In this document: positions 45,647-48,600 of the stretch, one piece after another
Layout: the number at the start of each line of letters is the position of its first letter
Position numbering within the stretch: the first letter of the stretch is position 1
NCBI GenBank assembly: GCA_050951565.1
Contig: JBMNJH010000012.1
Location: 63,141-127,140, forward strand
Length of the DNA: 64,000 bases
From: Peptococcia bacterium
Lineage (GTDB): Bacteria; Bacillota; Peptococcia; DRI-13; DTU073
Direction: 5' to 3'
Made by a program: the position numbers and the translations under genes
The notes under the pieces: generated by a model
The model's database searches: none
Told to the model about the DNA's origin: nothing
The model's input: only the letters and a program-made list of their open reading frames with translations

Positions 45647-48600
45647 ATGATTAAGAATAAAAGTCTTGTTTTCCTCTTAATTCTTTCGCTTTTATTAATA
45701 TCGTTTGGGATCTATTTTGCCATCCATTCATTTAACAGCACCAAAAGTGTTTTTATGCAGGATGGCTATGTTTTGGAGTGCCAAGATGATCTGGCTGGCG
45801 CGGAAGGAAAAAGCATTCAGTACCATTTTCGAGGGGGAACGACTTACCGGGCCAGGTTCCCTCAAAAAATTGTTTTTAATGACACCCAAAACCAGCGGAT
45901 TATCACTGCTGAGCATGGTTTCCTTCATTATGCCGACGGTTCGTTTGGGGCCTTCAAAAACGGGGTTGTATTGAACCTTTCCGCTTTAAATGCTGACTTA
46001 ATTAATTATTACAATGTTTCTCCTGATTCCATCATGCAAAACAACGGGAGTAGTTATTCCCTTGACCATATGGGGACACCGATCAACTTTAAACAGTTCC
46101 TGTGGAAATTAAACCAGGACAAATATCTGCTGGCTGCCGATACGATCAAGCTGCATTTTTTAGAGGATGATGTCCGGGAATTTAAAGACTATCTCGAAGT
46201 AAGCTACATTGATGAAAATGTGGTGCAACTGGCCAATAACGAGGCTGTTCTCCAGACCATTGCCACGGATTGTTTTGTGGAACTGAACGACGGAGTGACC
46301 ATCAATTTTAGCGAAAAGACGATTAAGCAACACGATGTTACGAAATTAACCCTGGCCCAGATGGTTGTGGATGCCGAAGAAAATATTGAGGTGACCCCTT
46401 TAAAAATGAAGGAGGTCGCTGCAATTAAGCTGCCCAAAATTACCACCGTCGACGGTGAAGACGGGGAAGAAGGGGAAACAGGAGAGCCCGGCGAACCCGG
46501 CGAACCGGGCGAGGTTGGCGAAACCGGTGAAACCGGCGAAACCGGAGAACAGGGCCAAACCGGGAGTAAAGGAAGGGGCGGCAGTAAGGGGAAAGACGGC
46601 GCTGCCGGTGAGACCGTCGGCGTCGGAGGAGGAGATGGAGACTCCGTTGATCAGGTTAAATTACCTGTTTTTGAATTGTCCGAATGGAAGGTAACCGCTT
46701 CCAGCGCCAGCGGCGTTGTCTTTATTAAGGACGACGATAATTTGCTGGTGGGAGACTCCGTTAACCTGAAGCTGGTGGAAACCGGCACCAACAAAGTGGT
46801 GTACGGTCCCGAGCCGTATTCGGGTCTGATTTTCAATTTCCATTTGGACGGGCTTAATTCCGGTACCGAGTACCGTTTGGTCATCAGTGCGGATTATGCC
46901 GTAAATAACAGGGAATATACCAGGGATTTCATTAATAAGGTGTTTGTGGCGGATACCCTCGGCTTATCTGTGGAAAAGGAATACGCCGCCGAGACGGAAC
47001 TTGCTTTTGTGGTGATGAAGCAAGCTTCTTCCACTGTGAGTATCGCCAGTTTACAGCTTTATAACGAAGATGGGACTTCGCACAGCGTGGAAAATGTTAA
47101 TTTCGCCGGCGATCGGCAAACGGTCCTATTTAGAAACCTGACGCCCAATACCAGGTATCTGGTTCAGCTTACCGACGTGAAAAGCAGTGACGGTATTGAA
47201 ATGGCTACTTATGGGCAAAGGCAGGAATACAGCACTTTAAAGACGCCGCCCACGATTGGCGATCCCAAAGTAATCGTCAACAAAAAGAACGGTTCCTTTG
47301 AGATGCAGGTTGGCGCTGTGACGGACCTCCACCATGGCATCACCAAATTCCGTTATGAGATCTATGCTGCGCCGGTTGTTACCGGTGTCACACCGGTGAA
47401 AACGCTGAATTCCGCCACTAAGGGGAGCGTGGCCGCTTTTGTGGACAACTTGCTCTTGCGGCGGAACGAGGATTATCAGGTGAAAGTGGTTGCCGAGTTC
47501 TTTGATAATGAAAAGACGGTAGAGTTCGAAAGCAACCTGTCGGATACATTCCGCATGGAAGGGGTCAGCTTCCCGACGGTGAGATTCGAGGCCGAAGAAA
47601 TCACTTTCGAGCGGGTCCGGGGAATTATCTACATTGACGCCCAGTCGGCAGAACTGGTGGTTAATTCAAACAAACCGCTGACCATCATGTACGAAAACTC
47701 CCTCAACGTAGCTAAAACCCTGCCGCCGATTACCGATCTGGCCCAGTTCGCGGAGACCGCTACTACTTATGCCATCCCCTTTGTGGTCAATAACTTACGA
47801 CAGAACGATACATATGTGGTCTCCCTGCATGGTTGCGTGGACCTGCTTGACGGGAATCCGGAAGAACAAGTGGTCATCGGAAGCTTTATCTTCGACACCC
47901 CGTCCAGCAATCCCTTACAAGCCGTCTTTATTGAGAATTCCACTGACGGCAGTTCGGCGTTCGATGTTGATTTCCAGTTACAGAGCCCGCCCATGATCAA
48001 CAGCGAACTGGAAGCCAACACCTTGTCCCATATGACCCTGAAGTTGTATTCCGGGGTTACGACCGAAGAAAGAAACCTGGTTGCCACCGTGCCTTACCAT
48101 GACACTAATCCGGAACCGTACGAGAGCGTCCTGAGAGAAACCTTCTATGACCAGATGGCCAAGATTACGGAAACAACCTTCGGGCTGCGTCCCGAACAGT
48201 TGGAAAACCCTGTTTATACCATTCAGGTGACCGGGGCATCTGACTATACGGATTATCAAAACGAAATCACGATTATTAACAATATAATTACGGTTAACAG
48301 ATCCGAATCTGCGCCGCCGTTACCGCCGGTGAATGACGCTTTTGAAGTGATCACGATTATTAACGGCAATGCCGAACAATTTGGCGTGGAAAAAGTTGAT
48401 GGATTGAGAGATGACACGATCATTGGGTATGCCGTGAAGGCGAAGTTTGACAGTGATCTGGCCAATAACTTTACCTATACCATGTATTCACCGGCCGAAT
48501 ACCATCAATACAACAGTGATCCCGACATTACCGCAGGCGCGCAGCAGGTTGGATCTGCCTATACCTTGCCGGTTGTCGGCGGCAAGATTCCGGAACTGGT

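Follow-up and report, generated by a model that had tools for sequence, protein, structure and literature searches.

The window analysed here, a 64,000-nucleotide stretch of a Peptococcia bacterium genome (GenBank assembly GCA_050951565.1, contig JBMNJH010000012.1, positions 63,141 to 127,140 of the forward strand), carries an operon in which two genes for surface proteins, here called P1 and P2, precede a set of F1-like ATPase genes. P1 contains a collagen-like tract of Gly-X-Y triplets, and P2, its paralogue, has a tract of Gly-Gly-X triplets at the equivalent position. From operon to operon the numbers of triplets in the two tracts follow each other closely, and the tracts probably serve as coupled, extended stalks.

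The P1 and P2 genes and their glycine-triplet tracts

P1 (45647..51100, +) encodes a protein of 1817 amino acids (aa). As judged from the open reading frame (ORF) and its translation, from matches to the Pfam families Collagen and fn3 and from an AlphaFold2 model of residues 1-500, it is an N-terminally anchored surface protein with the order membrane helix, β-rich N-module, (GXY)18 stalk and array of FN3-type domains. Hereby, a basic N-terminus (MIKNKS) leads into a hydrophobic membrane helix (residues 3-31; 45653..45739, +), which is also a helix in the AlphaFold2 model, and a juxtamembrane β-rich module follows (residues 33-235; 45743..46351, +), whose strands are predicted with a per-residue confidence score (pLDDT) of about 75-87. 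Residues 243-334 are unstructured in the model, and β-sandwich domains occupy the sequence from residue 341 onward. The collagen-like tract (residues 270-323; 46454..46615, +) had been described in the initial annotation as 18 unbroken Gly-X-Y triplets starting at residue 270, with Glu occupying the X position of the first eleven and a basic patch behind these, and the translation agrees with this description. Pfam PF01391 (Collagen) matches residues 270-322 with 34.8 bits at a gathering cutoff of 27.2, which by the Pfam criterion places the tract in the collagen-repeat sequence family.

A single unbroken G-x-x tract is present in all nine P1 homologues (25-72% identical), where it starts at residue 266-284 and comprises 17-30 triplets; that the search returned nine proteins is probably due to the low-complexity tract saturating the word filter. 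Across the orthologue tracts the X position is taken by Glu (25%), Ala (16%), Lys (11%) and Asp (10%), and the Y position by Ala (20%), Asp (16%), Asn (14%) and Ser (11%). Against the NCBIfam models for Scl1/Scl2 (NF038329, NF038330) and Lcl (NF046116), P1 scores 34.4, 31.4 and 17.2 bits, with cutoffs of 325, 400 and 500, respectively. Moreover, it contains no LPXTG-type motif, its C-terminus reading ...EPQVLIYNK, and its anchor lies at the opposite end. On these grounds the whole protein is assigned a place outside the Scl/BclA/Lcl adhesin families.

P2 (51127..52923, +) encodes 598 aa with a membrane helix (residues 8-38), a β N-module (42-210), the stalk, two FN3 domains (313-503) and an acidic tail (511-598). 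AlphaFold2 predicts the all-β module at 42-210 with confidence (pLDDT above 90), leaves residues 229-307 unstructured and shows the tail as disordered. The domains at 313-503 match FN3, and P2 yielded no Pfam match, PF01391 included. The tract (residues 244-303; 51856..52035, +) consists of 18 GGX triplets followed by GIA GGQ, i.e. 20 G-x-x triplets, and opens with GGK GGR GGK, just as had been noted beforehand for the neighbour of P1. With few exceptions, the 73 P2 homologues contain a (GGX)n tract, or its equivalent when read as GXG, that starts at about residue 230-260, with n = 10 to 53. Hereby, Gly fills position 2 of 82% of the 376 triplets from 17 orthologues, and position 3 is Thr, Gly, Ala, Ile or Asn. 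With Gly at two of three positions and an unbroken register, the P2 tract has the sequence signature of polyglycine-II (PGII; PMC3808813). The tail (residues 511-598; 52657..52920) is strongly acidic, Pro/Glu-rich and predicted to be disordered, and its DNA consists of 9-, 18- and 27-bp tandem repeats (Tandem Repeats Finder score up to 115).

In hhalign, the N-modules of P1 and P2 align with a probability of 96.1% over 197 columns, and the P1 N-module aligns with the family of a 242-aa protein encoded further downstream ('P292') with a probability of 95.4% over 159 columns. Within the modules, a ten-residue motif of P2 has its counterpart in P1. The homology of the N-modules, together with the same order of membrane helix, β-module, unstructured tract and FN3 domains in the AlphaFold2 models, bears out the earlier statement that the two tracts stand at equivalent positions. 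Sequence profiles and models thus identify P1 and P2 as paralogues sharing one architecture. A strand-like motif of alternating hydrophobic residues adjoins each tract (LPKITTVD-G in P1, 46430..46453; DELIIR-GG in P2, 51835..51855), and the P1 tract is preceded by both the conserved β N-module and this short motif. Strand-like motifs are found at the same places in the orthologous loci L005, L016, L058 and L060 and may represent a registration or nucleation element.

In the tracts of both P1 and P2 orthologues, Gly is constant at every third residue and the X and Y positions diverge freely. Although the proteins share only 25-35% identity, their Gly register continues without a break for as many as 43 triplets in P1 and 53 in P2, and the retention of the tract in such divergent homologues argues against chance. 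At the DNA level, both tracts of the window contain imperfect 9-bp and 18-bp repeats with about 67-88% matches, the P1 tract consisting partly of imperfect 9-bp repeats with 76-88% matches. Since these repeats are imperfect, the arrays are not recent expansions, although slippage can still alter the number of triplets. Gene conversion was considered as a cause of the equal length and dismissed: the in-register identity of the two tracts is 52%, compared to 40% in codon-shuffled controls, and the excess stems mainly from shared GGN codons.

Co-variation of tract and linker length

A genome scan with the P2 N-module (an alignment of four sequences) identified 50 loci from Peptococcia, Clostridia, Lachnospiraceae, Erysipelotrichaceae, Coprobacillus and 'Bacilli/Tenericutes' metagenome-assembled genomes (MAGs), the closest being a Peptococcia MAG with 75% identity. 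In an exhaustive, profile-free search of 1.84 billion representatives, 291 clusters (50% identity) were recovered. The P2 family is rare but real.

For each pair, uninterrupted G-x-x triplets were counted in P1 and P2 of the same locus, and a simple regular expression defined where a tract begins and ends; several of the loci stem from MAGs in which frameshifts may be present (L008, L059). The P1/P2 numbers are 18/20 in the window, L008 and L061, 17/19 in L003 (= L009) and L010, 20/22 in L007, 21/23 in L006, 8/9 in L043, 9/10 in L012-L014, 12/15 in L060, 23/25 in L002, 26/28 in L062, 27/27 in L005, 39/40 in L019 and L039, and 43/43 in L059. In L016, 23 triplets of P1 are paired with 14 + 9 triplets of P2, which are separated by a one-residue register shift (span 23.3). 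The P1 tract of L058 is composed of 24 triplets, a 12-residue break and 26 triplets (span 54) and is paired with 53 triplets in P2, and L001 has 30 triplets in P1 and at least 20 in P2, where the contig ends.

Over 19 pairs, ranging from 8/9 to 54/53, the two numbers correlate with r = 0.998 (Spearman 0.998). Regression yields a slope of 0.95 (95% confidence interval (CI) 0.92-0.98) and an intercept of 2.5, with differences between -1 and +3 triplets. When each of 12 lineages is represented by a single pair, r is likewise 0.998, and permutation, with the largest difference as the test statistic, yields p of about 5e-6. Within the window's clade four lengths (17/19, 18/20, 20/22 and 21/23) are tracked at a constant offset of +2. 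Independent variation of the triplet numbers among orthologues, which the initial annotation had envisaged as an outcome that would speak against paired stalks, was thus not observed: in the 19 operons the numbers are tied, with a maximal difference of 3 over a range of 8-54. As slippage would let the two arrays drift separately, selection must maintain the length match. The slope of 0.95 lies between 1.0, corresponding to one common helix, and 0.92, corresponding to rises of 0.286 and 0.31 nm per residue. Its use as a test of a common helix versus separate collagen and PGII rises was given up, because without L058 the CI covers both 1.0 and 0.92.

In a low-GC (guanine plus cytosine) branch, the same place in P1 and P2 is taken by non-periodic low-complexity linkers rich in Gly, Asn, Ser, Thr and Asp. 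Such linkers are present in ten ATPase-bearing loci (L018, L020-L025, L032, L037, L038). A further set of loci from Bacilli, 'Tenericutes' and Erysipelotrichaceae MAGs (L026-L031, L033-L036, L040-L055) encodes P1, P2 and a module protein of about 245 aa, again with non-periodic linkers; no ATPase genes were found within 9 kb downstream in these loci, the rest of those genomes not having been checked. Absence of the tracts from related operons, likewise named beforehand as an outcome that would speak against the proposal, was observed in part. Periodic tracts are replaced both in ATPase-bearing relatives and in the ATPase-less Bacilli class, but the linkers themselves remain and are still correlated in length.

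Measured as the distance between conserved alignment anchors, the linker lengths of P1 and P2 correlate with r = 0.92 over all 50 loci, and with r = 0.81 (Spearman 0.91, slope 1.07) over the 33 loci without periodic tracts, a group that includes outliers at 73/145 and 101/167 and in which many loci are closely related. Compared with these loci, the periodic group shows a far tighter match, with a standard deviation (SD) of about 1 triplet. Of a further 120 full-length proteins representing the family, 46 contain unbroken runs of 8 or more triplets. The system as a whole is hence characterised by an extended spacer whose length is species-specific, and strict periodicity with near-exact matching is a property of the P1/P2 pair in Clostridia/Peptococcia-type operons.

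The F1-like ATPase operon

P1 and P2 are the first two genes of the locus, P1 lying directly upstream of P2 wherever a locus contains both genes (about 55 of 62 loci). They are followed by genes for a c-like and a b-like protein, the alpha-, gamma- and beta-like subunits, a small ORF, a polytopic membrane protein, a module protein and a giant surface protein. This order downstream of P2 is the same in every readable orthologous operon (e.g. L002, L003, L058-L062). The F1-like cluster is present in about half of the loci, and every periodic-tract locus with enough downstream DNA has the full ATPase cluster.

The c-like subunit (53036..53278, +; 80 aa, two membrane helices) matches PF00137 with 36.7 bits and stays below the cutoffs of all NCBIfam c-subunit models. 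It is highly conserved, and its second membrane helix is devoid of Asp and Glu in 25 of 25 loci (the window and 24 others, e.g. L002, 12940.., and L058, 12323..), which means that the canonical H+/Na+ binding site is missing. The following 258-aa protein (53290..54066, +) has an N-terminal membrane helix and a helical region, is conserved in orthologous operons and belongs to no Pfam or NCBIfam family. Its position, which matches that of b/delta in the canonical atp operon, suggests that it may be b-like. The alpha-like subunit (54057..55388, +; 443 aa) matches PF00006 and has F1 alpha subunits as its best PDB matches, and it scores 395 bits against NCBIfam atpA (cutoff 484.45) and 427 bits against PRK13343 (cutoff 554). 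The gamma-like subunit (55385..56176, +; 263 aa) matches PF00231 with 81.5 bits and remains far below the cutoffs of the NCBIfam gamma models. In the beta-like subunit (56173..57528, +; 451 aa), which is assigned by PF00006, PF22919 and PDB matches, the Walker A motif GGAGVGKT is intact; its score against NCBIfam atpD is 459.8 bits at a cutoff of 462.85. The alpha- and beta-like proteins likewise stay below the NCBIfam cutoffs for the alternate F1Fo type. In the distant operon of L058 (15511..17856), a gene for a ParA/MinD-type ATPase lies between gamma and beta, and the beta-like protein is N-terminally extended (522 aa).

A small ORF (57562..57903, +), whose true start may be the ATG at 57637, occupies the epsilon position and is assigned by position only, with no family match; in orthologous loci this place is taken by an ORF of 96-130 aa. 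Next come a 194-aa polytopic membrane protein of no recognised family, which is kept in the operons (57878..58462, +), and the 242-aa single-pass protein 'P292' (58485..59213, +), which combines a membrane helix with a β module and has no stalk. Nearly every locus encodes the latter module protein, even where ATPase genes are lacking. Subunits a and delta were not recognised in the operon, in that the 258-aa and 194-aa proteins give no PF00119-type or delta-type match, remote homology being possible.

The operon ends with a third stalked, FN3-containing surface protein of 1086 aa (59228..62488, +), whose orthologues have 2395 to 5862 aa and are the last gene of their operons. At the position equivalent to the Gly-triplet tracts it carries a Pro/Glu-rich linker of 55 residues (residues 224-278; 59897..60061, +), and the length of this linker scales with that of the P1 linker (r = 0.78, n = 10 operons). 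A second linker, EPEPEPE, is located at about 60400..60450. Downstream of the 1086-aa ORF, short same-strand ORFs in other frames are found at 62496..63258, one of them with a GLUG motif (weak Pfam match); frameshifts may have split the gene, or the ORFs may be genes in their own right. On the other side of the operon, a purL-type FGAM synthase gene (41344..45261, -) is divergently oriented upstream, and genes for a heavy-metal P-type ATPase (38803..41121, -) and pyruvate carboxylase (32668..36099, -) lie beyond it. Orthologous operons are flanked by different genes, which marks the operon as a self-contained unit.

The closest comparison for an F1-type set encoded together with surface proteins is provided by the F1-like X0 ATPases of Mycoplasma, and some of the present loci do occur in Bacilli/'Tenericutes' MAGs. 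The mycoplasma systems comprise an extra alpha/beta/gamma(/epsilon) set with unrelated membrane proteins and are connected with large surface proteins instead of bioenergetics, Type 2 being the gliding motor of M. mobile and Type 3 being associated with MIB-MIP (PMC3369863, PMC12994834, PMC11864180). Their cluster has seven genes, among them one for a 12-TM (transmembrane segment) protein, lacks a c subunit and places gamma and epsilon upstream of alpha and beta (PMC12994834). In contrast, the present operon has a c-like subunit and the canonical order c-b-alpha-gamma-beta-(epsilon). Scores against NCBIfam MMOB1660/1670 and MSC_0619/0618 are 381.8, 384.8, 304.1 and 402.6 bits, with cutoffs of 600, 850, 520 and 570, respectively, and P1, P2 and the 1086-aa protein have no match to curated gliding-protein or other NCBIfam families. 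Judged by its sequences, the operon belongs neither to the canonical F1Fo synthases nor to the mycoplasma F1-like X0 systems, as the defining features that were tested for are absent.

A probable coupled stalk and its alternatives

Gly at every third residue, the lack of breaks and a length match to about one triplet (about 0.9 nm) point to extended polyproline-II-type rods and to a physical coupling of P1 and P2. We consider it probable that both tracts act as extended stalks of some kind which are matched in length and functionally coupled. In the arrangement we propose, both N-terminally anchored proteins would hold a thin, extended polyproline-II-type rod between the membrane-proximal β module and the distal FN3 domains, the rod of P1 being collagen-like (Gly-X-Y, acidic) and that of P2 PGII-like (Gly-Gly-X). 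As selection keeps the rods equal to within one to three triplets, they would lie alongside each other and form a single, physically coupled stalk, a bundle registered by the paralogous N-modules and by the short β-strand before each tract. The collagen-type rise is 0.286 nm per residue, and at this value the stalk would measure about 15 nm in the window and about 7-46 nm across the family. These lengths are of the right order for crossing a Gram-positive wall, and Pro/Glu-rich segments are typical of wall-spanning regions; the stalk may thus set a species-specific distance between the FN3 domains and the membrane, plausibly across the wall. It would be the outer portion of a machine, with the F1-like ATPase encoded downstream as the portion in the cytoplasm and membrane. 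Hereby, the helical conformation, the co-assembly, the crossing of the wall and the link to the ATPase are elements that we infer. A single hetero-oligomeric bundle in which the tracts of P1 and P2 are the strands is quite possible, although we propose it tentatively; it is slightly favored over rods standing in parallel by the tracking in single triplets, by the paralogy of the N-modules and by the resemblance of the strand motifs before the tracts.

Several observations weigh against a heteromeric helical stalk. In the AlphaFold2 monomer models both tracts show a pLDDT below 50 and no secondary structure. Gly at X, as in GGX, destabilises classical collagen helices, and Gly stands at position 2 throughout P2. 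The P1 tracts are Pro-poor, with about 5% Pro at Y and <3% at X, which implies a lower intrinsic triple-helix propensity; the values reported for Gram-positive collagen-like proteins are 31% for Pro at X and 48% for Thr at Y (PMC8968730). Neither the break in P1 of L058 nor the shift in P2 of L016 has a counterpart in the partner, and the pairs are not all phylogenetically independent. Moreover, the non-periodic linkers of the relatives indicate that strict triplet periodicity, or a triple-helical repeat, is not essential to the system. The partly complementary charge to which the initial annotation had pointed was recovered, among offsets from -4 to +6, at the in-register offset 0 only (z = -3.2) and does not extend beyond the window's clade. 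It is weak and arises from the GGK/GGR start of P2 in that clade, and distant P2 tracts are almost uncharged. Being limited to one clade, the charge signal is not used as evidence of contact.

Equal lengths could also result from two separate homo-oligomeric rods in parallel, i.e. a collagen-like homotrimer of P1 and a PGII bundle of P2, which are clamped at the membrane and at their distal ends or have the same layer to cross. The different chemistries of the tracts, with acidic E/D/K/A composition in P1 and, in P2, Gly as the second and T/A/I/N as the third residue, are in line with such an arrangement, and the scaling of the unrelated Pro/Glu linker in the third protein suggests a shared span rather than shared strands. 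This linker follows the trend loosely, however, and the single-triplet matching within one clade, in steps of about 0.9 nm, is tighter than a common span needs. The intermediate slope of 0.95 would suit parallel rods as well, but the CI obtained without L058 cannot separate 0.92 from 1.0. Altogether, we regard parallel rods as somewhat unlikely.

If, on the other hand, the tracts were disordered glycine-rich spacers, their periodicity would be a by-product of 9-bp slippage and their similar length a consequence of the same wall to be crossed. This would agree with the low pLDDT and lack of secondary structure, with the 9-bp tandem repeats in the DNA and with the length correlation that persists among the low-GC non-periodic linkers (r = 0.81, n = 33). 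Yet the Gly register stays unbroken over up to 43 (P1) and 53 (P2) triplets while the other positions diverge, DNA repeats that are only 67-88% identical indicate no recent expansion, and a disordered chain needs no matching to one triplet, whereas the periodic group is far tighter (SD about 1 triplet) than the non-periodic one. Disordered spacers thus appear quite unlikely. Finally, the (GGX)n tract of P2 might fold back on itself into a compact intramolecular PGII bundle resembling the snow-flea antifreeze protein. GGX repeats form compact PGII bundles in some proteins. In flagelliform silk, GGX segments are present as PGII nanocrystals (PMC3808813). A fold of this kind is nevertheless very improbable for P2, as its register runs without turn-forming interruptions over 10-53 repeats, a compact fold would not track the length of the P1 tract with a slope near 1, and AlphaFold2 predicts no such bundle.

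As putative members of a coupled stalk, P1 and P2 can be compared with several known systems. Like Scl1/Scl2 of Streptococcus pyogenes, BclA of Bacillus anthracis and Lcl of Legionella, P1 has an unbroken, charged/polar Gly-X-Y tract; in those proteins the tract is without hydroxyproline and is a stalk carrying a globular part off the Gram-positive surface. The known prokaryotic examples are homotrimers (PMC8968730). Unlike these proteins, P1 is anchored by an N-terminal membrane helix and has its stalk beside the membrane, lacks LPXTG, is poor in Pro and Thr, is paired with a length-matched GGX paralogue and is encoded in an F1-like ATPase operon. To our knowledge, all collagen-like proteins so far described from bacteria are homotrimers that serve as C-terminally anchored adhesins or as spore fibres.

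The domain order of P1 is that of the type II transmembrane collagens and collagenous receptors of eukaryotes: like collagens XIII, XVII, XXIII and XXV, MARCO and SR-A, it has a short cytoplasmic N-terminus, a single membrane helix, a juxtamembrane region, a rod and distal domains. There is no sequence relationship, however, and P1 is bacterial, lacks hydroxyproline and has a second, GGX-type chain beside it; the would-be nucleation element is a β module in P1 and a coiled coil in the type II transmembrane collagens. Folding of the latter is nucleated membrane-proximally, according to the passage of PMC8968730 that cites Snellman 2000. As adjacent paralogues with length-matched tracts, P1 and P2 are also reminiscent of C1q. 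Its A, B and C chains are encoded by adjacent paralogous genes, have equal-length collagen-like regions and co-assemble in register; the pair described here, whose assembly is putative, comprises two chain types instead of three, one of them GGX. The Gly-Gly-X signature of P2 is shared with PGII structures such as the snow-flea antifreeze protein, the gp38 adhesin of phage S16 and flagelliform silk. PGII helices pack via their glycine faces, and the known cases are short turn-joined helices or crystalline silk. P2 departs from them by its single unbroken register of 10-53 repeats, its stalk position and a length that follows a collagen-like partner.

In conclusion, a collagen-like stalk in an apparently undescribed, F1-like ATPase-associated surface system appears to be new, and full-text literature searches found no paper on this operon or on a GXY/GGX pair. 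The tracking of the two lengths, nearly triplet for triplet over a seven-fold range, amounts to a natural molecular-ruler experiment, and the P1/P2 pair makes the hetero-assembly of two different polyproline-II-type chains directly testable. If true, such an assembly would be the first heteromeric bacterial collagen-like one. It is further conceivable, although unlikely as a whole, that the hetero-oligomeric collagen/PGII-type rod is the wall-crossing tether or shaft of an undescribed ATP-driven surface machine of walled Bacillota with an F1-like motor and an ion-blind c-ring. This machine would be a counterpart or relative of the mycoplasma F1-like X0 motors, which serve in gliding and antibody cleavage. 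If the stalk joins the motor to giant FN3-rich surface proteins through the wall, it would represent a new ATP-powered surface apparatus in Gram-positives, and the operon could help to explain how the mycoplasma motors arose.

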